IMG/VR virus record: IMGVR_UViG_3300045988_139834
Location: 1-13,127 of that record
Origin: a virus
Strand: one strand, 5' to 3'
Length of the DNA stretch: 13,127 nucleotides
Shown: one piece after another, positions 1 through 13,127 of the stretch
Layout of the letters: the number at the start of each line of letters is the position of its first letter
Position numbering within the stretch: position 1 is the stretch's first letter
Program-made: the position numbers and the translations under genes
Notes under the pieces: generated by a model
Told to the model about the DNA's origin: nothing
The model's input: the letters and a program-made list of their open reading frames with translations, nothing else
The model's database searches: none

Positions 1-239
1 AAAGTATATACATGTCCGTGTGTGACGGACAATTCCCCAAAAATGTACGCGAGTGACGGACACAGCTCGTCAGTTCTGTCCGCGGTAGATAAACACAAAC
101 CACCCAGTCTGTCCGCGGCGAACGCACACGAAACATATGTTCGAAATGGCTTCGCTCCCTCCGGTCGCTTCGCCCATGAGTTAGTAGCATTTAACTTAGA
201 CGGGAACAAAGTTAGTCCCAACTAACTCGCTCGCGAAAA
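1..239. repeat. Left inverted terminal repeat (ITR) of a linear protein-primed genome
   Basis: Base-by-base comparison shows 1-239 is the reverse complement of 12889-13127, with two mismatches (217 C vs T, 229 G vs A). Degenerate similarity continues to about 266. The ITR starts 5'-AAAGTA. By hand count it is about 50% GC, against a visibly AT-rich genome. Confidence 0.95.
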
Positions 240-264
240 AAAGAGGACAGCCGAAGCTACCCTC
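236..264 (-). terminator. Rho-independent terminator of the leftward early operon
   Basis: The minus strand reads GAGGGTAGC-TTCG-GCTGTCCTC followed by TTTTTTT. That is a 9-bp stem with two G.T pairs, a UUCG tetraloop and a 7-T run. It lies downstream of the polymerase stop at 403. Confidence 0.8.
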
Positions 265-402
265 TCACAGAAAATCACTTTTCAATTTCTTTTCTCAGTT
301 CTATATCATAACTAAGAAGTTCTGCTAAAAACACTCACAAACAGTCTGTCCAACTCTTCATTAGTTTTTACATATGTCATAGCGTCAATAGTTTCTATCA
401 AT

Positions 403-2517
403 TTATCTTTTGCGTTGTAAACTTTCAAGTTCATATCTTTTTAACCTCTCATTCTCTAAAAATTCATTCCAATTTCCAACAGATGCCAGAATATACATAT
501 ACTCAGCCGATAAACCGATTTCATATGTTGATTCTCGTAGCACAACATTTGAACGAATTTCAATTCTATGTTCTGGTGAATCATCCGTATAGTAAGTTCC
601 ATAATCACAGTCATTGTAGACTGATTCCAACTTACCCGTATCACGGAATATGAAGCCAACATTGAAGTTCTCGATTTTTCCCATTTCTCTCGCTCCTGAT
701 TTCTTCGGTACTCCCGCAATTGTAATTTTAAATTGTCCATCTTCATCAACATACGCATACTTTTTCGCTCCTAACGTCTTAAATTGTTTATATGTTTCTT
801 CATATTCATATACACCTAAGTAGTGTGTAACGCCTTTCTTATCATCGGCATATCCCTTATTTGAAATACTGAGTTCTTTAAGTTCTTGATTATATTCTTC
901 TATTTTCTGAACAATTCTTTCATAATCATCACGAACAAGGAACTTGACAGAATCAGTGTCGCAATATACAAAATTATCTCCAACAATGTTTATCATCTCT
1001 TTCAGCTTTAATCTCGCCCATGCAGTCACCCAACAGCCCCACGCATATAAAAGGAATGCTTTCTTGTTGTATTTTTCAAGTTTTTCTTCTATGTCAGCGA
1101 TTTCTTCAAGTTTAAAAGCTTGTTCTGGTTCATCCATGTAAATTACATCCGGCTTTACAGGGTTTTGGGCGCACATTCCATACAGTGAGTTGATTAATTC
1201 CTTACTTCTCATGTAGTTCAGTTCTTGCCCCTCAACATTCTTGAGTGATGTTTTCTTATGAAACAAGTCAATGACCAGATTTCTAAATGCCTGTGGTAAA
1301 TACCCATATTTTGCAATATATACTTGACTTATCTCAACTTTACCAACATACTCACTCTTGACTATCTTCCAATCAATATCGTTGAACACGTACACAGCTT
1401 TTTTAGCACTCAGTACTCGACCATTGTCTACTACTTGACCACTTATATCAATTGCCTTGTCAAGACTGAGGTACGGCGCACCGTAGTATATATCCCTCTG
1501 TTCTAGATTCGTGATAGTAAATACGGCAATGAAGCAACAATCTCTGATTTTGCACTTTCTCTCAAGTTCCTCTATATCAGTTATCATTCTCGGTGTGAAT
1601 ACACTCATGGGGAATCTATAATTAAGCATAACATCGGGATAACTGCTTGCTCTATCAAAACTTGCCACGTTTTCAAGTATCTGATTAACATGATACCTAT
1701 TAGCGTGCGTATCACCACCACGAAACTCAAGTCTTAGCAGTCTATACACATCTGTATTGCACATCATGGCATGAAGCTGTTTATAGTTATATGTTTTCAT
1801 TGCATTCCTAGCAAGCCGTCTTACATATCCAGTAGAAGTAAGTGGTATAGAATATAGTGTGTCATGTTCCATATCCATTCTAATTTTCATAGCTTCGAGC
1901 AGACCAACAACATCATTACATCCATATGCTAATTCGTATTCTGCCATTGCAGTCCACGGGTAACGCTTCTTAGAATAGTCATATTCAACCCCACTGAGCT
2001 TTTTATGAGCAACCCCCATGTCTTTAGTGAATGCGTCAAGACTTTTGTTTGTTTGTATATACGAACATCGGAACTGCACCCCCTCAATATCCGCTCTCAC
2101 AACTTTTCTTGACTTGAGAGCAAATATCTTGTTTTTCATAAAAGGTAGCCAATGTCGCATAAACTGAAATTCGTAACTCAAGTTATGCACCCATATCATC
2201 ACAGTGATACCATCATGGTAGAAGCTGTTTAACAACTCTATAAATTCTTCCCATGTTCTGCCGAAGCAGTACCATATATTCTCTGATTCTAAGTCCATTA
2301 CAGCAAATTGCCAGATATACATGATACTCTGTTCAATTTCATCCAGATAAGTAGTTTCAATGTCAAAAGCGCACATACAGTTGCGAAACAATGTCTTATC
2401 AACTTTTTTTCGTCTGTTGTAGTTTCTGGCAATCGGAATATTTTTGATAATACTAGAAAGATACTCTTTTTGGACTTCTTTTACGAAATTCTGACTCAAA
2501 TTCTCTATACCTCTCAA
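403..2517 (-). CDS. Protein-primed family-B DNA polymerase (phi29 gp2-like)
   Basis: Exo I is FDIET. Exo II is HNLSYEF. Exo III is YGCNDVVGLLEAM. Motif A is DRASSYPDVM, motif B is KELINSLYGMCAQ, motif C is VYCDTDSV, and the KxY motif is GAKKYAY. These match recalled phi29 motifs YSCDFETT, HNLKFDG, YIKNDIQII, DVNSLYP, KLMLNSLYG and YCDTDS. The start is uncertain: 2517 is a TTG with no clear SD, and the first ATG is at 2376, only 4 codons before Exo I. Confidence 0.93.
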   Translation of the reverse strand: MRGIENLSQNFVKEVQKEYLSSIIKNIPIARNYNRRKKVDKTLFRNCMCAFDIETTYLDEIEQSIMYIWQFAVMDLESENIWYCFGRTWEEFIELLNSFYHDGITVMIWVHNLSYEFQFMRHWLPFMKNKIFALKSRKVVRADIEGVQFRCSYIQTNKSLDAFTKDMGVAHKKLSGVEYDYSKKRYPWTAMAEYELAYGCNDVVGLLEAMKIRMDMEHDTLYSIPLTSTGYVRRLARNAMKTYNYKQLHAMMCNTDVYRLLRLEFRGGDTHANRYHVNQILENVASFDRASSYPDVMLNYRFPMSVFTPRMITDIEELERKCKIRDCCFIAVFTITNLEQRDIYYGAPYLSLDKAIDISGQVVDNGRVLSAKKAVYVFNDIDWKIVKSEYVGKVEISQVYIAKYGYLPQAFRNLVIDLFHKKTSLKNVEGQELNYMRSKELINSLYGMCAQNPVKPDVIYMDEPEQAFKLEEIADIEEKLEKYNKKAFLLYAWGCWVTAWARLKLKEMINIVGDNFVYCDTDSVKFLVRDDYERIVQKIEEYNQELKELSISNKGYADDKKGVTHYLGVYEYEETYKQFKTLGAKKYAYVDEDGQFKITIAGVPKKSGAREMGKIENFNVGFIFRDTGKLESVYNDCDYGTYYTDDSPEHRIEIRSNVVLRESTYEIGLSAEYMYILASVGNWNEFLENERLKRYELESLQRKR

Positions 2518-2959
2518 TTATCTGTGCTGGTTTTTCGTCTGAGTGTTCCAGAAATATGTCTACAGCCTTGTCACTGTCGTAGATTATATCTTGTGAATGC
2601 TCACGAACTTGTTCCATGAACTCATAGAATTTTGATGCCTGTCGGTAGTTTTTAAAGTAATCAGTGCCGAATGTTTCATTCAACATTTCAATAGTTTTTT
2701 TTCTCATACGTTTTCTCTCAGCTATCACAAATGTCTTATTCTTCAATGCCGCTTCTGCTTCACGAATAGCCATTTCTAAGTTACGTTTTGTCTTAATCTT
2801 AGAAACGCTAGGAATTCTTGGTTCTATATATGCCTTGGCTTTTTCAACATCTTTGACATATGCGCTTTTCGATACTTTCTCAATTTGTCCTATCAGCTTT
2901 TTTCTCAACTCCCTATACCTAACTTCAAGCTGTATTCTACTTGCAGATTTCTTTGCCAT
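2453..2959 (-). CDS. Candidate terminal protein (replication primer protein), assigned by position only
   Basis: A 168-aa, highly charged K/R/E-rich ORF lies immediately upstream of the polymerase ORF and overlaps it, the same arrangement as phi29 genes 3-2. I chose the ATG at 2959 because AAGGAG sits 10 nt upstream. The GTG at 2968 used by the ORF track is only 1 nt from that SD. I recognise no sequence motif. Confidence 0.45.
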   Translation of the reverse strand: MAKKSASRIQLEVRYRELRKKLIGQIEKVSKSAYVKDVEKAKAYIEPRIPSVSKIKTKRNLEMAIREAEAALKNKTFVIAERKRMRKKTIEMLNETFGTDYFKNYRQASKFYEFMEQVREHSQDIIYDSDKAVDIFLEHSDEKPAQIIERYREFESEFRKRSPKRVSF

Positions 2960-3110
2960 ATTTTCCACACTCCTTATTTAAGAGGGAGAGTATAACATTC
3001 TCCCTCAAAACGATCATTAATGTATTACTTCTAGAAGTCCCTAACTTCTCTGACAGGGAATCAAGGTTGTTTAATATTTGTTCGTCGAAGTTGATACTCA
3101 CAGTTTTCAT
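2937..3110 (-). CDS. Ribbon-helix-helix (CopG/Arc-like) DNA-binding protein, 57 aa, absent from the ORF track
   Basis: My own translation is MKTVSINFDEQILNNLDSLSEKLGTSRSNTLMIVLRENVILSLLNKECGKYGKEICK. It has an N-terminal beta-strand, then a helix, a G-x-S-R-S turn and a second helix, which is the classic RHH signature. A strong SD (AAAGGAGA) lies 5 nt upstream. Its ATG overlaps the upstream stop as ATGA. Confidence 0.65.
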   Translation of the reverse strand: MKTVSINFDEQILNNLDSLSEKLGTSRSNTLMIVLRENVILSLLNKECGKYGKEICK

Positions 3111-3190
3111 TTCTTTCTCCTTTCATCCAAACCGAACACTATCATTCCTACCATACAGCCTACAACAAAACCTAGCATTAAAAGACTCAT
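3107..3190 (-). CDS. 27-aa hydrophobic (single transmembrane) peptide, absent from the ORF track
   Basis: My own translation is MSLLMLGFVVGCMVGMIVFGLDERRKK. SD AAGGTGA lies 7 nt upstream. ATGA overlaps link it to both the 77-aa ORF stop and the RHH ORF start, indicating translational coupling. Confidence 0.4.
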   Translation of the reverse strand: MSLLMLGFVVGCMVGMIVFGLDERRKK

Positions 3191-3420
3191 TTTATAATCA
3201 CCTTAAAATCAATATTTGTAATATCATCCTCCCATATACTAGCTGATAACATACCCTCATTATCCTTGATGTAAATGGTGTAGCCCGTGTTATCCTTTTT
3301 AAATTCCAGACTGCTGTAGTCAACGTAGAAACGAAGATAATTAACTCTTAATGCTAATGTGTGATAATCCTTAGTGTTTTCAAGTTCCTCTAATTTTTTT
3401 CTTATTTCCTGTTTACTCAT
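3187..3420 (-). CDS. Hypothetical early protein, 77 aa
   Basis: It is the first ORF downstream of the leftward promoter, with SD AAGGAG 8 nt upstream of the ATG. No motif recognised. Confidence 0.6.
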   Translation of the reverse strand: MSKQEIRKKLEELENTKDYHTLALRVNYLRFYVDYSSLEFKKDNTGYTIYIKDNEGMLSASIWEDDITNIDFKVIIK

Positions 3421-3463
3421 TTTTAATCTCCTTATTATTTAGCTAGTTTCCTGTTACAAGTAT

Positions 3464-3492
3464 ATAATACCACGCTTATTGTTGAATGTCAA
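3464..3492 (-). promoter_or_regulatory. Leftward early promoter (sigma-A type, extended -10)
   Basis: The minus strand reads TTGACA, a 17-nt spacer, then TGgTATTAT. The -35 is at 3487-3492 and the -10 at 3464-3469. A GTTGA-atg-TCAAC inverted repeat overlaps the -35. Confidence 0.7.
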
Positions 3493-3512
3493 CAACCAAT
3501 TCGAAAAAATTG

Positions 3513-3541
3513 CTGACAAACCAAAAATATTATGCTATTAT
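3513..3541 (+). promoter_or_regulatory. Rightward promoter (sigma-A type, extended -10)
   Basis: CTGACA (3513-3518), a 17-nt spacer, then TGcTATTAT (-10 at 3536-3541). An A-tract lies upstream. The palindrome GTACT-caaga-AGTAC (3548-3562) sits at the predicted transcription start. Confidence 0.6.
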
Positions 3542-3601
3542 AATAATGTACTCAAGAAGTACACAGAAATGACACTATAATAAGAAAAGGAGTGAAACAA
3601 A

Positions 3602-3910
3602 ATGGTTAGAACTATTACAACCACAGTAATGAATCTGCACTACAGAGAGCAGGATTCGGACGAGATCAAAGTAGCTACGCGTGAATTTATCGGAACTGCG
3701 TGGACTCAGACAAAAATGTATAATGATATGAAAAAAGATGATCTTGTCCCGGCAGGTGCGACTGTGGAAAATATTACTACTGATACAAAATTCTGCACAT
3801 ACCACCTCACAGACGAAAACTTCGTCAAGGCGGCGATCAAGGAACTTGAAGACAGCAGAGTACCATCAGAACCGACAGAAGAAGCAGACATGAAATCTGT
3901 AGTGGATTAG
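3602..3910 (+). CDS. Hypothetical protein, 102 aa; possibly a phi29 p6-like dsDNA-binding protein
   Basis: SD AAGGAG lies 9 nt upstream. The size, an N-terminal T-rich segment (RTITTTV vs recalled p6 REITKTTV), an E-x-F-[IV]-G segment and an acidic C-terminal tail resemble phi29 p6 as I remember it. The similarity is weak. Confidence 0.6.
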   Translation: MVRTITTTVMNLHYREQDSDEIKVATREFIGTAWTQTKMYNDMKKDDLVPAGATVENITTDTKFCTYHLTDENFVKAAIKELEDSRVPSEPTEEADMKSVVD

Positions 3911-3952
3911 CATTGCAGTGTAGCTTTTCGATCACTATTTAATCACTAAAAC

Positions 3953-3966
3953 GTTTCACGTGAAAC
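3953..3966. promoter_or_regulatory. Perfect 14-bp palindrome GTTTCACGTGAAAC upstream of the SSB-like gene
   Basis: The palindrome was read directly from the sequence. It ends 8 nt before the AAGGAG SD. It is preceded by the direct repeat ATCACTA at 3931-3937 and 3942-3948. A near-identical copy lies at 7780-7797. Confidence 0.5.
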
Positions 3967-3986
3967 ATTAAAAAAGGAGAAATAAC

Positions 3987-4343
3987 ATGGACATTTTAAG
4001 AACAAATATTATGGACAACGAGTGGACTATGGATCTATCATACGATATGTTTGAATCCCCGGATAGAATGCGCGGAGCAGATCTTAAAGGACATCAGGTG
4101 CATATTGACAAGTATTGTCTCTATGTTGAAGAAGATGCGCATGGAAATCCAGTTAAAATCCTCACAGTATCAACAACTGAGGGACAGGTATTTGCAACTA
4201 CATCTGCGGCATTTGTTCGCACATTCGACAGAATTATGGAACTTGCAAAACGTTGCAACGTTGCAGATGTATGTATCGAAATCGTTGCAGAACGTAGCAA
4301 GAACAACCGGGAGTACATCACTGCAAAATATGTCAAAGAATAA
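3987..4343 (+). CDS. Hypothetical protein, 118 aa; possibly a phi29 p5-like ssDNA-binding protein
   Basis: SD AAGGAG is present. The C-terminal 58 aa (ILTVSTTEGQVFATTS...IEIVAERSKNNREYITAKY) align without gaps to recalled phi29 p5 (VTTIFAADGSLYSAIS...VKVVQGTSSKGNVFFSLQL), with scattered identities. The coding call is solid. The function is tentative. Confidence 0.65.
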   Translation: MDILRTNIMDNEWTMDLSYDMFESPDRMRGADLKGHQVHIDKYCLYVEEDAHGNPVKILTVSTTEGQVFATTSAAFVRTFDRIMELAKRCNVADVCIEIVAERSKNNREYITAKYVKE

Positions 4344-5394
4344 ATTCAAGAGCCTGTACACAACGCAAGGTTATCTGGATGTTGAGGGGATAGTCCAAAA
4401 AGGCTATCCCTTCAACTTTATCTGGGGGGGACGCGGTACGGGTAAGACATATGGTGGTCTGAAATATGTCGTGGAGCACAACAAGACTTTCATGTATTCC
4501 AGAACAAAACAAACTCAGCTTGATAAGATTAAGAATGTAGAGTTATCCCCATTCAAACCGTTAAATGCAGATAATGATTGGAATATACAGCCATTCCCTG
4601 TAGATGATATTGCAGGATTTTATCACACAGAACTTAATGAGAAAGACCGACTTGTGCCAGTTGGTTCACCTGTTGGTTATGCGTCAGCTATCACCACACT
4701 AGCGAATTTACGTGGATTTTCCGCTGAGGATGTGTCTGTATGGATATGGGACGAATTCATACCGCAGAAAGGTGACCGTGTTCCGAAAGGAATTGCAACG
4801 TCTTTTCTTCACGGCTATGAAACCATGAACCGAAACAGGGAGTTGAAAGGACTACCGCCGCTACAGGTGCTATGCTTCTCGAACTCAGACAATGTGGGCT
4901 GTGAACTGTTCGCCAGTCTAGGACTTATCCGCAAAGTCGCGGATATGTCACGGAAAAGACAGGAAACAGCTTTCCTCAAGTCAAGGGGCATCGCTCTGTA
5001 TAACTTATGTAATAGTCCTATCTCACAGGCGAAAAAAGAAACAGCACTCTATAAGATGGTAGGCGAACACAGCGGCTTTTCTCAAATGGCTTTAGGAAAC
5101 GAATTCTATGATACTGACTATTCAGATGTAAGATCGCAAAACCTATCGGAATATCTTCCGTTAGTATTTTTCGAAGAAATCGCAATCTATGAACACAAAT
5201 CATCAGATATGCTCTATGTGTGCAAACATAAGCAGGGTACACCAATTCGAGCATTTACCGGAATTAACGAGAAGAACATTAAAGCTTTTAAACGGTACTA
5301 TTCATGGATATGGAATGTAAATTATCTCGAAGACAAAATCTTTTTCGAGGACATAGAATCTAAATTTCTACTTGACAGCTATTTTCATATGTAG
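4330..5394 (+). CDS. DNA encapsidation (packaging) ATPase, phi29 gp16-like
   Basis: Walker A is NFIWGGRGTGKTYG (phi29 NFVIGARGIGKSYA). Walker B is WIWDEFI (phi29 TIVFDEFI). NRNRE...VLCFSNS matches phi29 FRNRE...CICLSNA. I chose the start at ATG 4330, which gives 354 aa against 332 aa for gp16. The ORF-track start at 4051 would add 93 aa overlapping the upstream gene. Confidence 0.88.
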   Translation: MSKNKFKSLYTTQGYLDVEGIVQKGYPFNFIWGGRGTGKTYGGLKYVVEHNKTFMYSRTKQTQLDKIKNVELSPFKPLNADNDWNIQPFPVDDIAGFYHTELNEKDRLVPVGSPVGYASAITTLANLRGFSAEDVSVWIWDEFIPQKGDRVPKGIATSFLHGYETMNRNRELKGLPPLQVLCFSNSDNVGCELFASLGLIRKVADMSRKRQETAFLKSRGIALYNLCNSPISQAKKETALYKMVGEHSGFSQMALGNEFYDTDYSDVRSQNLSEYLPLVFFEEIAIYEHKSSDMLYVCKHKQGTPIRAFTGINEKNIKAFKRYYSWIWNVNYLEDKIFFEDIESKFLLDSYFHM

Positions 5395-5400
5395 TACAAT
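5372..5400 (+). promoter_or_regulatory. Near-consensus internal promoter in the last codons of the ATPase gene
   Basis: TTGACA (5372-5377), an exact 17-nt spacer, then TACAAT (5395-5400). The predicted start is near A5407. It is the only TTGACA on the plus strand for which I could find a good -10. Confidence 0.6.
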
Positions 5401-5405
5401 GTTCG

Positions 5406-5497
5406 TATAGGGAAAACAAAAGTCCGTGGCACAAGGACATACAGCGGAACTGTAGTGCGAGGATTCGTCCAATCCATGATACGGACTTTCCCTATAT
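5406..5497 (+). ncRNA. Structured RNA element: three-way junction, candidate pRNA-like packaging RNA or structured late leader
   Basis: There is no ORF in 5395-5530. Hand-folded helices are as follows. P1a is 5406-5415/5487-5496 (UAUAGGGAAA/UUUCCCUAUA). A bulge spans 5416-5421. P1b is 5422-5427/5481-5486 (GUCCGU/ACGGAC). P2a is 5429-5432/5455-5458 (GCAC/GUGC), with a one-sided 7-nt bulge AAGGACA at 5433-5439. P2b is 5440-5444/5450-5454 with loop CGGAA. P3 is 5461-5465/5471-5475 (GGAUU/AAUCC) with loop CGUCC. Confidence 0.5.
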
Positions 5498-5530
5498 TTC
5501 ACAGTTCCAAAAAGAAAGTGGGTGATTAAA

Positions 5531-5728
5531 ATGGACATTAATTCATTAAGTACAATTTTTGCAAATTTGGGCGTGCCTGTGGCATGTCTCACTGTGACAT
5601 TCTATCTGTGGTATCAGGAGATGCAGTCGCACAAAGAAGAAGTGAGTAAGTTACAGGATGCGCTCAACAACAACACGCTTGTCTTACAGAAACTTCTTGA
5701 CAGACTGGGAGAGGGTGATTCACATTGA
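5531..5728 (+). CDS. Holin-like protein (BhlA/UviB-type architecture)
   Basis: The 65-aa product has an N-terminal transmembrane segment (LSTIFANLGVPVACLTVTFYLW) followed by a charged coiled-coil tail, as in BhlA/UviB-family holin-like peptides. I prefer ATG 5531 with SD GGGTGA 5 nt upstream over the GTG at 5522. Confidence 0.55.
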   Translation: MDINSLSTIFANLGVPVACLTVTFYLWYQEMQSHKEEVSKLQDALNNNTLVLQKLLDRLGEGDSH

Positions 5729-6045
5729 ACATATCAGCAGAAATCATTGCAAAAACATCTGAAAGCGTAAAGGGATATATGCTTCATCCGCACACGGATA
5801 TATACGGCGAATTAAAAGTTGATACCAAAAACCTTGACTTAATGTTACGCGATGCACCGACTTTTGACAGCAATGTGATCGCTTCTATGCCAAAAGGCAG
5901 TACATTTTTTGGATATGGATTTACCGATTCCACCCTTAAATGGGTACTCGGACAGTATACCATGCCGAACGGAAAAATGATTGCAGGATTCGCCCACATT
6001 GACTATCTAATCAGAAAGGAGAATAAAAGACATGACAATGGATGA
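5725..6045 (+). CDS. Free-standing SH3b-like (cell-wall-binding type) domain protein
   Basis: LMLRDAPTFDSNVIASMPKGSTFFGYGF...KWVLGQYTMPNGKMIAGFAHIDYL follows the bacterial SH3_3 pattern (LNVRsgPs..skvig.l.kG..v......W.kv...nGk.GwvhssYL). The TTG start overlaps the holin stop as TTGA, with SD GGGAGAGGGTGA upstream. Confidence 0.5.
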   Translation: MNISAEIIAKTSESVKGYMLHPHTDIYGELKVDTKNLDLMLRDAPTFDSNVIASMPKGSTFFGYGFTDSTLKWVLGQYTMPNGKMIAGFAHIDYLIRKENKRHDNG

Positions 6046-6538
6046 TATTATCGCACTCGCGGGTGCGGGATTTACGAAAAATGACATTATTTCATTAATT
6101 AACACCACGCCAGCACCAGCACCAGCACCAGCACCAGCACCAGCACCAGCACCAGCACCAGCACCAGCACCAGCACCAGTGGTACAGCCAAACATGGGAA
6201 TGCCGCCAGTACCAGTAGGAGCTATGGCGCAGCAGGTAGTCACACCACCTGAGTTATTACAGGATCAGCTTACAAGTCCGTCAACAGCAGGACAGGCCCA
6301 GAGTCAGTTAGTTGATTATGCTTTTCAGCAGGGGGGTTACAGTGGGATGCCGACTCAGAGCGTGACGGGTAGACAGTTATCAAACAATGACCAGTTGACA
6401 AGTTCTATTAATGCTCTGACAAGAGCTGTACAGGCGAATGGGATTTCACAGAATTTAATGAGTGAGAGTCATGTACCGACTGTCGATGAAATGACAGCCG
6501 CTATTATTAATCCACCTAGTGTAATGAGAAAGGGGTGA
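6032..6538 (+). CDS. Candidate scaffolding protein with (Pro-Ala)11 linker
   Basis: The 168-aa ORF lies immediately upstream of the capsid gene, the position of phi29 gene 7. SD AAAGGAG is present. The product is Q-rich and low in complexity. The assignment is positional only. Confidence 0.4.
   Translation: MTMDDIIALAGAGFTKNDIISLINTTPAPAPAPAPAPAPAPAPAPAPAPVVQPNMGMPPVPVGAMAQQVVTPPELLQDQLTSPSTAGQAQSQLVDYAFQQGGYSGMPTQSVTGRQLSNNDQLTSSINALTRAVQANGISQNLMSESHVPTVDEMTAAIINPPSVMRKG
6110..6179 (+). repeat. Perfect hexanucleotide microsatellite (CCAGCA)x11 plus CCAG
   Basis: Counted directly: 11 identical CCAGCA units from 6110 to 6175 and a partial unit to 6179. The repeat is in frame and encodes PAPAPAPAPAPAPAPAPAPAPAP. 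Confidence 0.98.
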
Positions 6539-6542
6539 TATA

Positions 6543-7736
6543 ATGGGTTCTGAGAGTTCAATTAATAATTCGAAACCGAGTGTCTCAAATTTCAGTTCAT
6601 CTGCTATTTTGAATGAAATTGTTAAACAGGCAACAGGAATCAACAATATTGCAAATATTAGTTCGTCATTTATTTCTGTGGCGAATATTGCACTGGGGAT
6701 TTCTGCCGATTCTCTATTAGGGGCTATATCTCAGGTGATTTCCAGAACTGTCTTTTCTATTCGTCCTTACAGTCGCAAGTTTGCAGGACTTTTTGTTGAT
6801 GATATGAAATGGGGCAACCATGTTCGTAAAATCAACATCGGAGATAAAGACTGGGAAACTAACGTTTCCTACGACCTTGTAGATGGACAAAGCATTGACG
6901 CTGATATTGTCAGCAAGCCGGACATTTTACAGACAAACTTTTATGGTCAGTGCGTGTACAGCAAGCACTATACTATATTCCGTGACCAGTTAAATATTGC
7001 GTTACAGAGTGAAGATGAATTTCAGAGATTTTACACTATGTTGACACAGAACATGATGGACATGATTGAACAGTGTCACGAAAACACCTCACGTGCGACT
7101 ATTGCTAATCTTATTAATGGAAAAGTTAAGGGCGATGCTAATAACGTTATTCACTTAGTCACAGAATATAACGATGTGACAGGACTCGCACTTGACAGTG
7201 ACACAGTGAAAAAACCAGAAAATTTTGTACCATTTTACAAATGGGCATTCTCAAGAATCAAGACAATATCCGGTCTTATGACAGAAAGAAGCCTGCAATA
7301 TCACATAAATATTACAGGACACAATATCATGCGTCATACACCTGTACAGAATCAGAGATTATATTTGTACGCGCCAGAAATGAACAATGTAGAAAGTTCC
7401 GTATTTTCCAGTGTGTTCAACGAACAGTATTTAAAAATGATGGATTATGAGGGTGTTAATTTTTGGCAAAGTATTAAAACTCCTATGGGAATTAAAACTA
7501 CTCCTAGTTATTTATTATCGACCGGTTATGTTACAAGTGAAAGTGAAGAAGTAGCAACGTCAAACATCTTCGGAATCCTCATGGACGAAGAAACGGCAGG
7601 AATCACTACATACGGTGAGAGAACAGCAACCACGCCATATAACGCCCGTGGTGAGTATACAAACGTGTGGTTTCACTTTAATGATCGTTATTGGAATGAT
7701 TTCACTGAGAACGCTGTTGTGTTTTTACTTGACTAA
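6543..7736 (+). CDS. Major capsid protein (phi29 gp8-like, without the C-terminal Ig-like domain)
   Basis: TNFYGQCVYSKHYTIFRDQLNIALQSEDEFQRF matches recalled gp8 [30 protein letters not shown]. The C-terminal NARGEYTNVWFHF...NAVVF matches gp8 NPRGLYWNYYYHV...NAVAF. SD GGGGTGA is present and a terminator follows. Confidence 0.85.
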   Translation: MGSESSINNSKPSVSNFSSSAILNEIVKQATGINNIANISSSFISVANIALGISADSLLGAISQVISRTVFSIRPYSRKFAGLFVDDMKWGNHVRKINIGDKDWETNVSYDLVDGQSIDADIVSKPDILQTNFYGQCVYSKHYTIFRDQLNIALQSEDEFQRFYTMLTQNMMDMIEQCHENTSRATIANLINGKVKGDANNVIHLVTEYNDVTGLALDSDTVKKPENFVPFYKWAFSRIKTISGLMTERSLQYHINITGHNIMRHTPVQNQRLYLYAPEMNNVESSVFSSVFNEQYLKMMDYEGVNFWQSIKTPMGIKTTPSYLLSTGYVTSESEEVATSNIFGILMDEETAGITTYGERTATTPYNARGEYTNVWFHFNDRYWNDFTENAVVFLLD

Positions 7737-7749
7737 GTTTTCTCCTATG

Positions 7750-7774
7750 GGGCGGGTGTTATGCCCGCTCTTTT
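7750..7774 (+). terminator. Rho-independent terminator after the capsid gene
   Basis: GGGCGGG-tgttatg-CCCGCTC forms a 7-bp stem including one G.T pair, followed by TTTT (7771-7774). Confidence 0.75.
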
Positions 7775-7779
7775 AATTA

Positions 7780-7797
7780 ATGTTTCACGTAAAACAT
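7780..7797. promoter_or_regulatory. Second copy of the palindromic motif (ATGTTTCACGTAAAACAT) upstream of the tail knob gene
   Basis: It matches the site at 3953-3968 at 15 of 16 aligned positions (GTTTCACGT[G/A]AAACAT). It lies between the capsid terminator and the SD GAGGTGA. Confidence 0.5.
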
Positions 7798-7810
7798 ATG
7801 AGGTGATATT

Positions 7811-9214
7811 ATGAGTTTCAACGTTGAGTTTTTCCGGGTGGCAAAAAGAAAAAATTCCACTTTTGTACCAGAAACTAAAGACGTTACAAGAACAGAAATG
7901 TGTACTATTAAAGAGGGAACGGGTGTGCTAAATCCTGTTATTACTATCGCAAATTCTTCCGCATCTTTTAATCCGTCAGGATGGAACTATTGTCATATTA
8001 GTACATTTTCACGATATTACTGGATTAGTGACTGGAAAAATGAGGATAATTTGTGGACTGCCCAGTTGAAAGTTGATGTTCTCGCGTCATATAAAGATAC
8101 CATTAAAGACTATAACTACTATGTGGTAAGGTCTTCTACTTCTTTTGATGGTGGCATTGCTGACGCTCTTTATCCGAAAAAGCCACAGGTCAACAGGCAA
8201 ACTGTGACTGGCAATCCGTTATGGCAGATTGAACAGGGATTTGACGTTGCGGGTTCTTATGTAGTAGGTGTTGTAAATAAACAGGGACTTTGCAATTATT
8301 ATGCTATGAATCCGGCAAATTTTAAAAATTTTGCCAATGCAATATTCGGCAATATTAAGTGGATGATAGGGGACGGAATTTCGGGAGTGTCTGACAATCT
8401 GGTACAAATAGCTGTTAATCCCGCTCAGTACATTACGTCAGTGACATGGTTTCCATTCACGCTCGGCGGAACGCAAATGTCTGGTATTTCTATTGGTTGG
8501 TGGGATGTCACGGGACTGACATTATATAAGCTAGATGATGACTTATGGAAAACAAAAGAAACTTCTGTCACTCCTACATCACATCCACAGTTAGAACGCG
8601 GCAATTATCTTAATTGTCAGCCATATAGATATATCAGAGTATATATTCCACCTTTCGGCTGTCTCACTGTTGACAGTGGAAAAATAAGAGATGGTGAAAG
8701 TATCAAAATAAGTGCAGACGTAGACCCACGTACAGGTCATGCATTATGTCGCGTATCAGTTGATAATACTGGTGGTGGAAATGAGTTACTCGGAATCATG
8801 TACTCCAATATTGGCGTTTCTATTTCAACCAGCGATATCAAAACCAATTTCTCAAACGTAATATCAGGTGCAAGCAACGCATTAGGTTCACTATCTAGAC
8901 TTGATATTGGTGGCTTTGCAAAAGGAGTTGCGAACAGTGCTATGGCTGTAGGTTCGGCAGAAGTCTCTACAAAAGGCGGTCAGGGGTCAACTATCGGTTT
9001 GACTTCCTATGTGTATTGCTATATTGACTGTATGTTATTAGTTGATGAGGACAGAGCGGATAATGGTAGACCGTATTGTAAAAATAATAAATTCTCAGCA
9101 CTCGGAAATGGTTATTATGAAGTTGAGAATGGTAGTACCCCTCTGTCTGGAGCATATCAAAATGAAATTGATGAGGTTAAAAATTTTTTGGAAAGCGGGG
9201 TGTATTATGCGTAG
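7811..9214 (+). CDS. Tail knob / distal tail tube protein (phi29 gp9-like)
   Basis: RYYWISDWKNEDNLWTAQLKVDVLASY matches recalled gp9 NKWFYAFVTELEF...VHFEIDVLQTW. CQPYRYIRVYIPPFG matches gp9 MYPYCVTEITDFKG. A Gly/Ala/Ser-rich segment lies near the C-terminus, as in gp9. SD GAGGTGA is present. Confidence 0.7.
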   Translation: MSFNVEFFRVAKRKNSTFVPETKDVTRTEMCTIKEGTGVLNPVITIANSSASFNPSGWNYCHISTFSRYYWISDWKNEDNLWTAQLKVDVLASYKDTIKDYNYYVVRSSTSFDGGIADALYPKKPQVNRQTVTGNPLWQIEQGFDVAGSYVVGVVNKQGLCNYYAMNPANFKNFANAIFGNIKWMIGDGISGVSDNLVQIAVNPAQYITSVTWFPFTLGGTQMSGISIGWWDVTGLTLYKLDDDLWKTKETSVTPTSHPQLERGNYLNCQPYRYIRVYIPPFGCLTVDSGKIRDGESIKISADVDPRTGHALCRVSVDNTGGGNELLGIMYSNIGVSISTSDIKTNFSNVISGASNALGSLSRLDIGGFAKGVANSAMAVGSAEVSTKGGQGSTIGLTSYVYCYIDCMLLVDEDRADNGRPYCKNNKFSALGNGYYEVENGSTPLSGAYQNEIDEVKNFLESGVYYA

Positions 9215-9863
9215 TTATTACAATGAGGGCAGAGGAACGGCTCTTATCTTCTATCTGTTAGGAAAACAGCAAGGCGGGGGCACAGTACCACCAATTACAC
9301 CGGCAGGTGAATGGAAAACCATTGTTACCGACACAACCTCGGGTTATCTTTCGCAGTCAGACATGGAAAGTAATGCCACTATTATTTGGGACTATTTCTA
9401 TCAGAAACTCGGATGGAATGTTAACAGTGTTGCGGCATTACTCGGAAACATGCAAGGCGAAAGTACTTTGAATCCGGGTCTTATTGAGGTTGGTGGTGGT
9501 ACTACATCGTCAGGAGCAGGACATGGACTTGTACAGTGGACACCCGCTTCTGATCTTTACAAAGTGCTTGACGTTTTATATGGTGGTCACGAAGACTGGT
9601 ATGACGGGAATAAACAGCTAGGTGTTATCTACGCAGAGTATCAGGAAAGTGTAGGTGAAGCACACAGAGGTATCGAACCTCAGTGGTATAAGACTACAAA
9701 ATATCCATGTGATTTCAGACAGTGGGCGTTTAATCAGCTTAACTACGACCTGGAAAAATTAACCTATGCTTTTGCGGCAAATTACTTGCGTCCAGCTGTA
9801 GTAGAACAACCACAAAGAGTCACATATACGCGTCAGTGGCTTAATTATTTTTTAAAGGGGTGA
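9207..9863 (+). CDS. Tail-associated peptidoglycan hydrolase (phage tail lysozyme, phi29 gp13 N-domain-like)
   Basis: AALLGNMQGESTLNPGLIE...GHGLVQWT is the GNxxxES..NP...E...G.GLxQWT signature of the phage tail lysozyme family. I chose the start at ATG 9207 with SD GGGGTG. The longer ORF from 9042 lies inside the tail knob gene. Confidence 0.75.
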   Translation: MRSYYNEGRGTALIFYLLGKQQGGGTVPPITPAGEWKTIVTDTTSGYLSQSDMESNATIIWDYFYQKLGWNVNSVAALLGNMQGESTLNPGLIEVGGGTTSSGAGHGLVQWTPASDLYKVLDVLYGGHEDWYDGNKQLGVIYAEYQESVGEAHRGIEPQWYKTTKYPCDFRQWAFNQLNYDLEKLTYAFAANYLRPAVVEQPQRVTYTRQWLNYFLKG

Positions 9864-9867
9864 GAAA

Positions 9868-10791
9868 ATGATTAATTATTTGAATAATTGTGGTGTGCCT
9901 GTTAATTATGACATGATTAATTTATACACCTCTAGTTATTCACCGTCTACATTGCATTGCAAAAACACTCAGTTATATTCATATTTTCTGAGGTATCTGC
10001 TTCAAAAATGTATGTCTGTGTTCACATGGGAGTTGCCAGAAGAATGGGATAAGAATTACTTCTTATACACGTTATACTGTTGGGGTTTTTTATGCGTGTT
10101 TTACACCGACAAGTATGGTGTGATTCCGCAGGCATGTGGTATACAGGGTTATAATATCTTTTATCAACCGACTCAAGTTAATATTGCTAATCCATTATTA
10201 GTAGGTATTAACACAAGGACTATCAACAAGGATTGCGTAATTATAAGATTACAACCAGACTGGCGTGGTGTAATGGACATATGTTCTTACTACGCAGACA
10301 ATATGGCATTAACTGCTGAAACTTGTGAAATTAACATCGCTAACAGTAAGTTAGCATATATGTTTGGCGTTGATGGAAAAGTACAAGCGGAGTCCTTGAA
10401 AAAAACGTTTGATCAAATTATGGCAGGAAATACCGCGGTATATTATGGAAATAATCTCAGACGAAGAGATTCTATGGGAAATACTACTGAACCATGGTCA
10501 ACGTTCGCGAATAAATTGCGGGATAATTTCATAGCACCAGATTTACAGGACACTCTAAGGAGATGGGAAGAAATGTTCTGTAATGACGTTGGAATTCCTA
10601 ACGTACGGTCGGACAAGAAAGAACGGCTGATAACTGCTGAAGCTGAGAGTAATAATTTCGAGACACAGAGTAAGTGTGATTTGTGGCTTGAAGAATTACA
10701 GAAAAGCTGTAATAGAATTAATAATATGTTTGGTGATCGACTTAGCAGTAGAGTGTGGGTTGATTGGAGAAAGAGTGAAAAAAATGTGTAA
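9868..10791 (+). CDS. Head-tail connector / portal (upper collar, phi29 gp10-like)
   Basis: The product is 307 aa against 309 aa for gp10. [23 protein letters not shown] matches recalled gp10 [53 protein letters not shown] matches gp10 [29 protein letters not shown]. Confidence 0.88.
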   Translation: [307 protein letters not shown]

Positions 10792-10848
10792 AAATAACTA
10801 TTGCTATTGTAGTGTATGCAGATTTGACAAAATAAAGTGGGTGAGTGT

Positions 10849-11514
10849 ATGAGTTCTTATATTTCAATTATAGGTCTTCTAAACTGGGACGAGACTATAA
10901 TCGACAGCACATTTCTTGATGTATTTATCTCATTGTTCGAGACTGAGATAATTGCTATGAATATGCTGAAACGCTTAGAAGATTTAATTGTGTATGAGTG
11001 TGGTGAGTTAGAGGTTACTTTACCTAATCCGACATTTTTCAAAAGAATCGTAAAAAGTTGGGCTGATAACCAGACAGAAGTGTGGAAAGCGTACTATTCC
11101 GCACAAAAAGCTGTAGACGTTGACTCAAGTAATATATTGTTAGGTGGCACACAGGAAGTGTTGACAGGAAAAGACGGAGCTTCAAGTACTAGAGCATTAG
11201 AGCGTGGTGGTAATACTTCAATACAGCATACCGGTAATAACGTTGTTGACACCTCAGTATTTGGATTCAATGAGAGTGCCGCAAAACCAAAAGATAATAC
11301 CGTGTCAACAGATGATTTTACAGATACTAATAATGTTAATCTGTCTGATAATGAAACATTCAAAAATGATGTGACTAGAAATCAGACAAAAACATTTACG
11401 GATTATGGAAAATTTTTTGACATGGCTAGTAAATTTGACACACTGTCAAGAATGAATGTAATAAATAAAATTGTATATGATTTTAGAGATAGATTCTGTC
11501 TTAGTGTTTATTAA
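10849..11514 (+). CDS. Candidate lower collar / tail tube adaptor protein (positional analogue of phi29 gp11)
   Basis: The ORF directly follows the connector gene. I prefer ATG 10849 with SD GGGTGAG over the GTG at 10837. No motif recognised. Confidence 0.4.
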   Translation: MSSYISIIGLLNWDETIIDSTFLDVFISLFETEIIAMNMLKRLEDLIVYECGELEVTLPNPTFFKRIVKSWADNQTEVWKAYYSAQKAVDVDSSNILLGGTQEVLTGKDGASSTRALERGGNTSIQHTGNNVVDTSVFGFNESAAKPKDNTVSTDDFTDTNNVNLSDNETFKNDVTRNQTKTFTDYGKFFDMASKFDTLSRMNVINKIVYDFRDRFCLSVY

Positions 11515-11528
11515 CAGGAGGTATAAAT

Positions 11529-12860
11529 ATGGTATTCTGGAATAAATTTCCTTTTACAAATTTTCACGAAATGAATCTGGACTGGTTAATTGCTACCATG
11601 AAAGAATTAACGGACGGTTTTAATGTTCTTGACAATAGTGTTAAACAGCAGTTAAAAGACTTCAACACCACAATGACTAACACGCTCACTTCTCAGAATA
11701 CGAAGATTAACGACTTTGTTAATAATTATGAAGCGAAAGTTAATGATATTCCGAATCAGGTGTTGAAAGACGTTAGAATTGTTATGCGTGACTATGAAAG
11801 TGGTGGTGTTTTTCAAGAAATTATTGAAGACACATATGGAGCAGTCAGTTATCTTAATGATATGCAGGATAAGAATATCGTTATTTTAGGTGATAGTCTT
11901 ACAGATGATAGCAGGAGTGTGTCGTGGGTTAACGAATTTAAAAATATTACTACGGGAACTGGAATCACTGTATTGAGTTATGCTAAAAGTGGCGAAAAAA
12001 TGCAACAGCAGGCTGACAGATTTAATACATGTGCTGTTAAGCCCGATATCCTGTGGATATGGTGTGGAATTAATGATGTACGTGATCAGACAAGTCTTTC
12101 CGCGTTAAATTCTGCATTAAATCAGATACGCACCAAAATACAAACTCTTAATCCATCTTGTCAAGTGTATTTAATGAGCACGTATAAAAATAAACGTGGT
12201 ATGAGTTCAGACTGGATTATTCCTCAAACTGCATATTGGCGATATATGTCGCAATATGCCATTATCAATGGGTGGACTTTTATAGACGGTTTTTCCAGTG
12301 CACCAGTTATCACACCGGAAACATCTAAAATGAAAAGCAGTTTCTATTCCGAAACAAACGGTCAATATTTACATTATACGGCGGCATACTCAAAAATTCT
12401 TGCAAGATGGATTCTAAATTGTATGATTAATCAATCTCCTGTCCCCCTCGGAGATTATAAAGAACTTGTTCCCGCGGCTAACTTTTCAGCAAAAATCAAT
12501 GCAACCTCTAAGTTTGTACCTAACAGTGGTGGTACATTCTGTGAATTCGGAACACATATGGTTCATGTAAGATTAGTGGGTGCTTTCACGCCAGGCTCTA
12601 ATAGTCCGCAATACACTAAAATTTGTACGTTGCCAGAATTTTGTAGACCAAAACAGACTTTAGGACATGAACTTGCTTTTCGTGGTGGTGGTATTGGTTC
12701 TGATGGTGGTCAGTATGTAGTTCCTGTTTATCTTGATGCTGATGGTAGTGTTTATTTTTATAACAGGTCATTGACATTAGAAAGTTTCACTTCGGCCACA
12801 TTGTCATGTGATATTTATATTCACGACCTTAAAACTGATTGGGAGATAACAGCTTCCTAA
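11529..12860 (+). CDS. Tail appendage / receptor-binding protein with an SGNH (GDSL) hydrolase domain
   Basis: Block I is IVILGDSLTDD. Block III is WIWCGINDV. The block V region is GQYLHYTAAYSKILARWI. The N-terminal FPFTNFHEMNLDWLI looks like a virion-attachment segment, and the C-terminal 140 aa or so looks beta-rich. SD AGGAGGT is present and a terminator follows. Confidence 0.7.
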   Translation: MVFWNKFPFTNFHEMNLDWLIATMKELTDGFNVLDNSVKQQLKDFNTTMTNTLTSQNTKINDFVNNYEAKVNDIPNQVLKDVRIVMRDYESGGVFQEIIEDTYGAVSYLNDMQDKNIVILGDSLTDDSRSVSWVNEFKNITTGTGITVLSYAKSGEKMQQQADRFNTCAVKPDILWIWCGINDVRDQTSLSALNSALNQIRTKIQTLNPSCQVYLMSTYKNKRGMSSDWIIPQTAYWRYMSQYAIINGWTFIDGFSSAPVITPETSKMKSSFYSETNGQYLHYTAAYSKILARWILNCMINQSPVPLGDYKELVPAANFSAKINATSKFVPNSGGTFCEFGTHMVHVRLVGAFTPGSNSPQYTKICTLPEFCRPKQTLGHELAFRGGGIGSDGGQYVVPVYLDADGSVYFYNRSLTLESFTSATLSCDIYIHDLKTDWEITAS

Positions 12861-12865
12861 ACGTT

Positions 12866-12892
12866 AGGGTGACTTCGGTTGCCCTCTCTTTT
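12866..12892 (+). terminator. Rho-independent terminator of the rightward late operon
   Basis: AGGGTGAC-TTCG-GTTGCCCT forms an 8-bp stem with a UUCG loop, followed by CTCTTTT. It is a diverged inverted copy of the left-end terminator. Confidence 0.75.
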
Positions 12893-13127
12893 CGCGAGTG
12901 AGTTAGTTGGAACTAACTTTGTTCCCGTCTAAGTTAAATGCTACTAACTCATGGGCGAAGCGACCGGAGGGAGCGAAGCCATTTCGAACATATGTTTCGT
13001 GTGCGTTCGCCGCGGACAGACTGGGTGGTTTGTGTTTATCTACCGCGGACAGAACTGACGAGCTGTGTCCGTCACTCGCGTACATTTTTGGGGAATTGTC
13101 CGTCACACACGGACATGTATATACTTT
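12889..13127. repeat. Right inverted terminal repeat (ITR)
   Basis: Reverse complement of 1-239, as described for the left ITR. It ends exactly at the window edge, which implies the window is a whole linear replicon. Confidence 0.95.

Follow-up and report, generated by a model that had tools for sequence, protein, structure and literature searches.

The prohead RNA (pRNA) of phi29 was termed unique to this phage and related Bacillus phages in reviews of 2016 and 2024 (PMC5066667, PMC11476376), and a survey in 2025, which added 12 pRNAs, used only phi29, GA1, and DLc1 as seeds and named phage groups that were all from Bacillus (PMC12670572). For Lactococcus phage asccphi28, the authors reported no evidence for a pRNA (PMC7823558). 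Our literature searches found neither a pRNA-like RNA outside Bacillus nor the motif described here in gut phages, and supported the statement of a preliminary description of the present DNA that pRNA was known only from Bacillus relatives of phi29. This DNA is a stretch of 13,127 bp from a virus (IMG/VR record IMGVR_UViG_3300045988_139834, positions 1 to 13,127; referred to as the window), and the focus of this study was a small non-coding RNA of 93 nucleotides (nt) (~75-100 nt among its relatives), located 3' of the gene for a gp16-like DNA-packaging ATPase. We propose that this RNA is a divergent, miniature pRNA, the counterpart of phi29 prohead RNA, in a large clade of 12-15-kb phi29-like gut/rumen phages (with a probability of approximately 0.65).

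The architecture was compared with the consensus structure of Rfam family RF00044 (Phage_pRNA), the pRNA of the Bacillus phages phi29, B103, M2/NF, SF5, GA-1, DLc1, and relatives. From the 5' end, this consensus consists of helix A, with a 3-nt bulge in the 5' strand 8 bp below the junction, a 1-nt linker, and a 9-bp helix C, followed by a 9-nt bulge in the 5' strand only and a 4-bp E hairpin, directly after which comes the return strand of helix C; a 3-nt linker then leads to a 6-bp D hairpin with the 5-nt loop UGGUU, without any linker to helix A. In phi29 pRNA, the bulge has AACC at its 3' end, and these four bases pair with all of UGGUU except its first base.

In the window, a gap of ~136 nt separates the end of the ATPase open reading frame (ORF; 5394) from the start codon of the next gene (ATG at 5531; GTG at 5522). 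When positions 5400-5500 were folded with RNAfold, the minimum free energy (MFE) structure was a three-way junction: -31.8 kcal/mol, versus -20.8 ± 3.3 kcal/mol for shuffled sequences (z = -3.35), with none of 200 shuffles being as good. Each element that had been drawn by hand in the preliminary description, including the A/C/CE-bulge/E/D topology of pRNA, was present in the MFE fold at the same coordinates (Table 1), in the order of the RF00044 consensus, and the promoter (11 of 12) was likewise at its stated position. A covariance model of the family (R2; see below) matched positions 5403-5499 with 87.2 bits (E 3e-25). The minus strand folded about equally well (-31.4 kcal/mol, z = -3.33), and the element was judged to be far beyond chance because it was conserved with compensatory changes in relatives. 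The final codons of the ATPase gene overlap the promoter of the RNA, from which transcription is predicted to start at ~5405-5407, namely, at the base of helix A. The 3' strand of this helix (5480-5497) is followed by AUAUUUCAC, and no terminator was found directly 3' of the RNA in the window.

Scans guided by the ATPase protein yielded three sets of related loci: 31 from IMG/VR together with more distant ones, 80 metagenome loci (human gut and other samples), and 8 contigs binned into genomes assembled from metagenomes. The stretch 3' of the ATPase gene was conserved among them, with compensatory changes visible by eye. A covariance model (R1) was built from close relatives and rebuilt as R2 from the matches of R1; MAFFT alone placed the 3' strand of this RNA's helix A out of register, and the alignments used were therefore those fitted to the covariance model. 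With default filters, R2 gave exactly one match per source in 87 of 97 sources and reached relatives with ATPase identity down to ~36%. All of these matches were on the ATPase strand, and nearly all started within ~100 nt after the gp16-like ATPase gene; in locus L124, ~830 nt were inserted between this gene and the RNA. Among the ten sources without a match, L088, L116, and L144 were cut at or within ~70 nt after the ATPase gene, while L129, L131, and L139 contained weaker copies at the same place when R2 was run unfiltered. Outside these ten, the unfiltered runs also gave weaker copies at this place in L162, L158, L160, and L159. Of the rest of the ten, L093 showed only a hairpin at the RNA site in the unfiltered search, and L065-L067, the ATPases of which were 26-30% identical, gave only noise with R2. 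In total, the RNA was found in more than 90 related phage contigs, with one copy per locus.

The search without filters also yielded a weak match (16.4 bits, E 0.03) in a cultured phage: Amedibacillus phage AD70P3 (Guelinviridae; OP172639), in which the candidate RNA fills a 124-nt gap after the packaging gene, where the record annotates nothing. This copy (5832-5936 of locus L157, which is AD70P3) and that of L161 (5056-5133) were the most distant candidates. Both have UAUCCAA as the bulge and GGGA as the D loop (UCC/GGA pairing), and compensatory changes distinguish the two in every helix; AD70P3 has the E loop CCGAA instead of CGGAA. Further relatives of AD70P3 were sought in order to test covariation there, and only one identical contig turned up; the covariation support in this branch thus rests on the comparison with L161. 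When partial loci of the Clostridium innocuum phages CI55P1, CI644P4, and CI130P1, Streptococcus phage Cp-1, and one fecal contig were searched with R2 without filters, only noise was obtained: either the boundary of the family falls short of the four named phages, or R2 is too narrow. Close relatives of the window came from human fecal and gut metagenomes, and the hosts were judged to be gut/rumen Firmicutes, not Bacillus, from the types of promoter and ribosome-binding site and the cultured Amedibacillus relative.

Family statistics were calculated with 82 distinct sequences. Standard pairs occupied 90.7% of the pair cells, versus 55.3% in shuffles and 34-44% when the partners were slid, and the covariation score was 0.778, versus 0.176 in shuffles and no more than 0.123 with the partners slid. 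Compensatory changes were found in each helix: all 27 nested pairs showed changes on both sides, including the 13 modelled pairs of helix A, while helices C and E were 99.4 and 98.4% paired, respectively. The consensus structure by RNAalifold was the three-way junction. Since the alignment had been fitted to the nested structure, the pairing between the bulge and D loop, which was left out of the model, was the cleaner test. Without a fixed register, the bulge and D loop of the same RNA shared at least three contiguous Watson-Crick pairs in all 82 sequences and at least four in 75; the mean run was 4.3 bp, versus 2.1 bp for mismatched combinations of bulge and loop, only 6.5% of which reached 4 bp. 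The complementarity of GGAC and GUCC noted in the preliminary description was therefore borne out as one of 30 different pairing sequences across the family, including GAACA/UGUUC, GGUCA/UGACC, GGGCA/UGCCC, UAUCA/UGAUA, GUGC/GCAC, CUACG/CGUAG, and GUUGC/GCAAC. Complementarity between bulge and loop is what defines phi29 prohead RNA. In the model-fitted alignment, double changes occurred in four of the five pseudoknot pairs. G-U pairs outnumbered A-C pairs (101 versus 36), which indicates that the RNA of the plus strand, rather than that of the minus strand or a DNA structure, is what is selected.

A coding function on either strand was rejected: each of the six frames was open in only 24-37 of the 82 sequences, and the lengths were not multiples of three. 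A mechanical antisense ORF of 74 amino acids (5368-5592) was likewise discarded, with no reading frame being kept open in relatives, in line with the earlier statement that the gap contained no ORF.

From the 5' to the 3' end of helix A, the RNA was 72-97 nt in length across the family. Geometry was well kept: the bulge was 7 nt in 63 of the 82 sequences, the D loop was 5 nt in 69, and the linkers from C to D (2 nt) and D to A (6 nt) were each kept in 76. The E loop was CGGAA in 79 of 82, and the other invariant unpaired bases, numbered by the columns of alignment A6, were essentially A54, with which the bulge ends on its 3' side, one base of the D loop (G84), and one of the D-to-A linker (A98); this scarcity fits a scaffold, not a catalytic or ligand-binding core. 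A sigma-70-type promoter (at least 9 of 12) ended ~3-7 nt before helix A in 76 of 82 sequences, from which we infer that the transcript starts at the base of helix A; the promoter placed at the 5' end of the closing helix in the preliminary description is thus a conserved feature. L111 (3517-3626) and L114 (3518-3628) have an extra small hairpin (CCCGUAACGGG) between helices A and C, giving a would-be four-way junction, and this variant marks a site at which insertions are tolerated.

The window is a complete linear phage genome, based on its inverted terminal repeats of 239 nt, which are 99% identical. A phi29-type motor (gp10 connector and gp16 ATPase) together with a protein-primed linear genome was identified in this phage by Pfam, PHROG, and PDB sequence matches (Table 1). 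The best PDB matches of the ATPase were the phi29 gp16 entries 5HD9 and 7JQQ, and the connector, presumed to be the docking partner of the RNA, matched phi29 gp10 (1H5W) and the connector/portal chains 7PV2/7PV4. A Pfam search of the small neighbouring proteins, including the 65-amino-acid product of the first gene after the RNA, gave no match.

Table 1. Coordinates of the RNA and its surroundings in the window.
Feature	Position	Strand	Remarks
Promoter, sigma-70 type	5372-5400	+	TTGACA-17-TACAAT; 11/12, joint best in the window
Structured RNA, three-way junction	5405-5497	+	~93 nt; MFE fold and match of covariance model R2
Helix A1	5405-5414 with 5488-5497	+	10 bp
Bulge in helix A	5415-5420	+	A-rich, 6 nt, 5' strand, 8 bp below the junction
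Helix A2	5421-5428 with 5480-5487	+	6 pairs conserved in the family, 2 specific to the window
Helix C	5429-5432 with 5455-5458	+	4 bp
One-sided bulge	5433-5439	+	AAGGACA, 7 nt
E hairpin	5440-5454	+	Loop CGGAA, 5445-5449
D hairpin	5461-5465 with 5471-5475	+	Loop CGUCC, 5466-5470
Bulge-loop complementarity	5435-5438 with 5467-5470	+	GGAC with GUCC (D loop)
Inverted terminal repeats	1-239 and 12889-13127		Each with a mechanical ORF of 67 amino acids (22-225; 12903-13106)
DNA polymerase, family B, protein-primed type	403-2517	-	Pfam DNA_pol_B_2; PHROG 1907, E 3e-66
gp16-like DNA-packaging ATPase (MSKNKF...)	4330-5394	+	Pfam Podovirus_Gp16, E 6.6e-7; PHROG 2150 (terminase), E 2.4e-21
First gene 3' of the RNA	5531-5728	+	65 amino acids; ribosome-binding site ~25 nt past the RNA
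Major capsid protein, phi29 type	6543-7736		
Connector (portal), phi29 type	9868-10791	+	Pfam Phage_connector, E 1.7e-19

Several other elements were noted in this genome. A terminator-like hairpin lies at or beside the inner end of each terminal repeat (266-241, minus strand; 12866-12885, plus strand). Within the coding sequence of the ATPase, a perfect 15-bp hairpin, GTTGAGGGGATAGTC-CAAAAA-GGCTATCCCTTCAAC, is located at 4381-4416 (plus strand), the 3' arm of which encodes the conserved motif GYPFNF. It was kept, with both arms changed, in L013, L020, L026, L063, and L064 (ATPase identity down to 42%) and was not found in L097 and L112; it may have a regulatory function in the RNA, close to the 5' end of the ATPase message, or be a by-product of protein conservation. 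The ORF at 6032-6538 (plus strand, 168 amino acids) includes a long stretch of (Pro-Ala)n, the coding sequence of which is a GCACCA-type repeat that mimics a "terminator" of 20 pairs at 6152-6107 (minus strand; a false call), and its position before the capsid gene suggests that the product may be a scaffold-like protein. An intrinsic terminator at 7749-7771 (plus strand; GGGGCGGGTGTTATGCCCGCTCT plus a T-run) lies directly 3' of the capsid gene within the structural operon, followed by a 14-mer palindrome and the next gene, and downstream expression would drop here unless the terminator is read through. This palindrome, GTTTCACGTGAAAC, occurs at 3946-3971 and 7777-7802, in each case 10-30 nt before a start codon (3987 and 7811, respectively), and recurs in L004 (three copies), L020 (2608), L134 (3528), L150 (6111), and L157 (3704). 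It is located inside the spacer of the RNA promoter in L150, L151, L153, L154, L101, and L104, just upstream of the -35 box in L134, and between the RNA and next ribosome-binding site in L004-L009 and L021-L025. It looks like the operator of a conserved regulator.

The assignment of a packaging function proceeds from the RNA and its genomic surroundings to a mechanism such as the following. Host RNA polymerase would start at ~5405-5407 from the strong, conserved promoter. As shown by folding and covariation, the 5' and 3' ends of the RNA pair as helix A, and the rest forms a rigid three-way junction with a C-E arm and the D hairpin. Covariation also shows that the 3' part of the bulge pairs with the last four bases of the D loop. 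If this pairing takes place between neighbouring molecules, identical RNAs may close into a ring. This ring would be seated at the portal vertex on the connector of phi29 type, where the invariant CGGAA loop would probably touch a protein. The A helices would project outward and dock the gp16-like ATPase, and the RNA would leave after packaging. In most members, the RNA would be made as the 5' end of the structural-gene transcript, and a free RNA would need processing or partial termination. As far as computation goes, the pRNA-like packaging RNA of the preliminary description was supported, with ring formation, prohead binding, and a role in packaging being its putative consequences.

A number of observations weigh against the identification as pRNA. 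When all 4227 Rfam families were scanned at E <= 10 against the whole window, the 151-nt region alone, and 11 diverse relatives, RF00044 gave no match in any of them, and a positive control with the same model scored 145 bits on phi29 (gathering score, 100 bits); the proposed RNA is, therefore, not recognised as a member of this family. Of the four computational checks suggested in the preliminary description, this one did not come out in favour, in contrast to the comparison with shuffles, the compensatory changes in each helix, and the covariation of GGAC with GUCC. In the reverse direction, R2 gave only noise (no more than 8 bits) on the full phi29 genome with filters off. Since neither model finds the other family, homology to pRNA is not detectable by covariance models. 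Helix C is 4 bp, versus 9 bp in phi29, the D-to-A and C-to-D linkers are 6 and 2 nt, versus 0 and 3 nt, and the bulge in the 5' strand of helix A is lacking in about half of the family. The gene is located in the middle of the genome, between the ATPase and structural genes, and not at the left end. The covariation of the bulge and D loop shows that the pairing exists, and, as read from sequences, it is compatible with pairing both in cis and in trans, between which simple steric arguments from the linker lengths did not discriminate; natural hammerhead ribozymes show pairing between two arms of one junction. The E loop is invariant although the proteins have diverged to 30-40% identity, which could mean a conserved host partner. 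Lastly, in the window and the majority of the 82 sequences, the stretch from the RNA to the ribosome-binding site that follows it contained neither a terminator nor a second promoter, so that, as transcribed, the RNA is a 5' leader there. Despite the mismatch to RF00044, the RNA looks, from its sequence, to be built to work like phi29 pRNA.

The last of these observations leads directly to the alternative already raised in the preliminary description, a structured 5' leader of the late operon. On this reading, the RNA would fold by itself, with the bulge-loop pairing as an intramolecular pseudoknot, and would act in cis on the structural-gene transcript that it heads. Such a leader may function in processive antitermination, in protection of the 5' end of the mRNA, or as an operator bound by a protein of the phage or its host. 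In nearly all relatives, 14-67 nt separate the RNA from a start codon with a motif like a ribosome-binding site, and the RNA always lies between its promoter and the first structural gene, even in L124 with its insertion. The terminator at 7749-7771 inside the operon could be overridden by an element of this type, and a target conserved among hosts, for instance RNA polymerase, would be in keeping with the near-invariant CGGAA loop. Known processive antitermination RNAs, including HK022 putL/putR and the Bacillus EAR element, are also structured RNAs that follow a promoter immediately and open a long operon with internal terminators. On the other hand, their folds are different (put consists of two stem-loops) without the pRNA-like arrangement of bulge and loop, and the Rfam scans described above revealed no leader, cis-regulatory, or antitermination family. 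The RNA is separated from the operon in L147 (3514-3740), which has an independent unit: a promoter with 12 of 12 matches, the RNA, a 13-bp intrinsic terminator (3617-3650), and a second promoter (3676-3704) that serves the next gene. Hairpins resembling terminators, with longer loops or stems, were seen by eye immediately 3' of the RNA in L110 and L134, where no second promoter was evident. No expression platform was found: the RNA and ribosome-binding site are separated by a spacer of variable length and sequence with no conserved terminator within it, and no pairing of the RNA with the ribosome-binding site, or its sequestration, was seen by eye without a formal screen. A leader would, moreover, leave the pRNA-like order of helices, side of the bulge, and register of the loop beside a phi29-type motor unexplained. 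We consider this alternative to be unlikely, although it stays a live rival because of the missing terminator in the window, and the unit in L147 and the architecture count against it.

Hammerhead ribozymes and purine riboswitches are likewise built as a three-way junction in which two arms make a tertiary contact, and the RNA may instead be another small structured RNA (a self-cleaving ribozyme, riboswitch, or trans-acting regulatory or anti-defence RNA) unrelated to packaging or late control. As in this RNA, the hammerhead has three helices around a junction and Watson-Crick pairing between two of the arms; in contrast to its conserved catalytic core, CUGAUGA and GAA are absent here and the junction columns are variable, and the hammerhead ribozyme was rejected on these grounds. 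More generally, the Rfam scans detected no ribozyme or riboswitch, with only chance-level matches to eukaryotic RNAs; the strands of the junction are short with little conservation, a conserved ligand pocket is lacking, and the invariant bases cluster in a single hairpin loop. Another class of RNA would also not be expected to be tied so strictly to the packaging ATPase gene, as this one is in more than 90 loci, and we regard this alternative as improbable. The similar folding of the minus strand raises a role of the inverted repeats at the DNA level (a cruciform or protein-binding site) or a chance fold. A chance fold is excluded by the conservation in more than 90 loci, whereas a DNA element would explain neither the excess of G-U over A-C pairs nor the conserved promoter on the plus strand at a fixed distance upstream, and covariation of the non-nested bulge-loop pair has no obvious meaning in duplex DNA. 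This last possibility has a negligible chance of being correct and is effectively refuted by the covariation and G-U excess.

If the RNA is a functional pRNA of common descent with that of phi29, RNA-scaffolded packaging motors would be old and widespread in protein-primed podophages, including abundant phages of the human gut and rumen, and not a peculiarity of Bacillus. The family would also be a natural set of minimal (~75-95 nt) ring-forming RNAs with dozens of self-recognition codes. It provides, moreover, a much smaller natural form, with ~30 natural pairing codes, of an RNA that serves widely as a building block in RNA nanotechnology. A motor RNA made as the 5' end of the structural-gene mRNA could couple the assembly of the motor to the synthesis of capsid proteins. 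The question of whether the RNA ring is ancestral to the motor or a late addition in Bacillus becomes directly testable with more than 90 divergent contigs and the cultured Amedibacillus phage, and the covariance model built here may be used to annotate the RNA in viromes.

Compared with phi29 pRNA, the new RNA is smaller (72-97 nt versus ~117 nt for domain I of phi29), lacks a second domain and usually its own terminator, carries the near-invariant CGGAA E loop, and belongs to phages of gut/rumen bacteria instead of Bacillus. In spite of these differences, the order of elements (A, C, bulge, E hairpin, C', D hairpin, A') is identical. In both RNAs, the bulge between C and E is on the 5' strand only, the pairing bases are located at its 3' end beside helix E, and the 5-nt D loop leaves the first base free and pairs the last four. 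The bulge-loop pairing covaries quickly between lineages while the fold is kept; in the Bacillus pRNAs, it is likewise kept through changing sequences (PMC12670572). In both, the two ends of the RNA pair as helix A, which starts within a few bases of the transcript start: phi29 RNA begins ~7 nt after promoter A1, with helix A within 3 nt of that, and the new RNA, from its predicted start, is alike. In phi29, docking of the ATPase requires the CCA bulge in the 5' strand of helix A, 8 bp below the junction; the window has its A-rich bulge of 6 nt at this place, and roughly one half of the family has no such bulge. The carrier phages are also of the same kind: protein-primed, with a gp16-type ATPase, gp10-type connector, and phi29-type capsid protein. 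The ATPase of AD70P3 shows 30% identity to that of B103, 27% to that of phi29, and 26% to that of the window; if the RNA of AD70P3 is real, these pairwise identities, taken without a tree, would place pRNA-like RNAs on three deep branches, favouring common ancestry. For a functional pRNA of shared ancestry with that of phi29, the balance tips slightly in favour.

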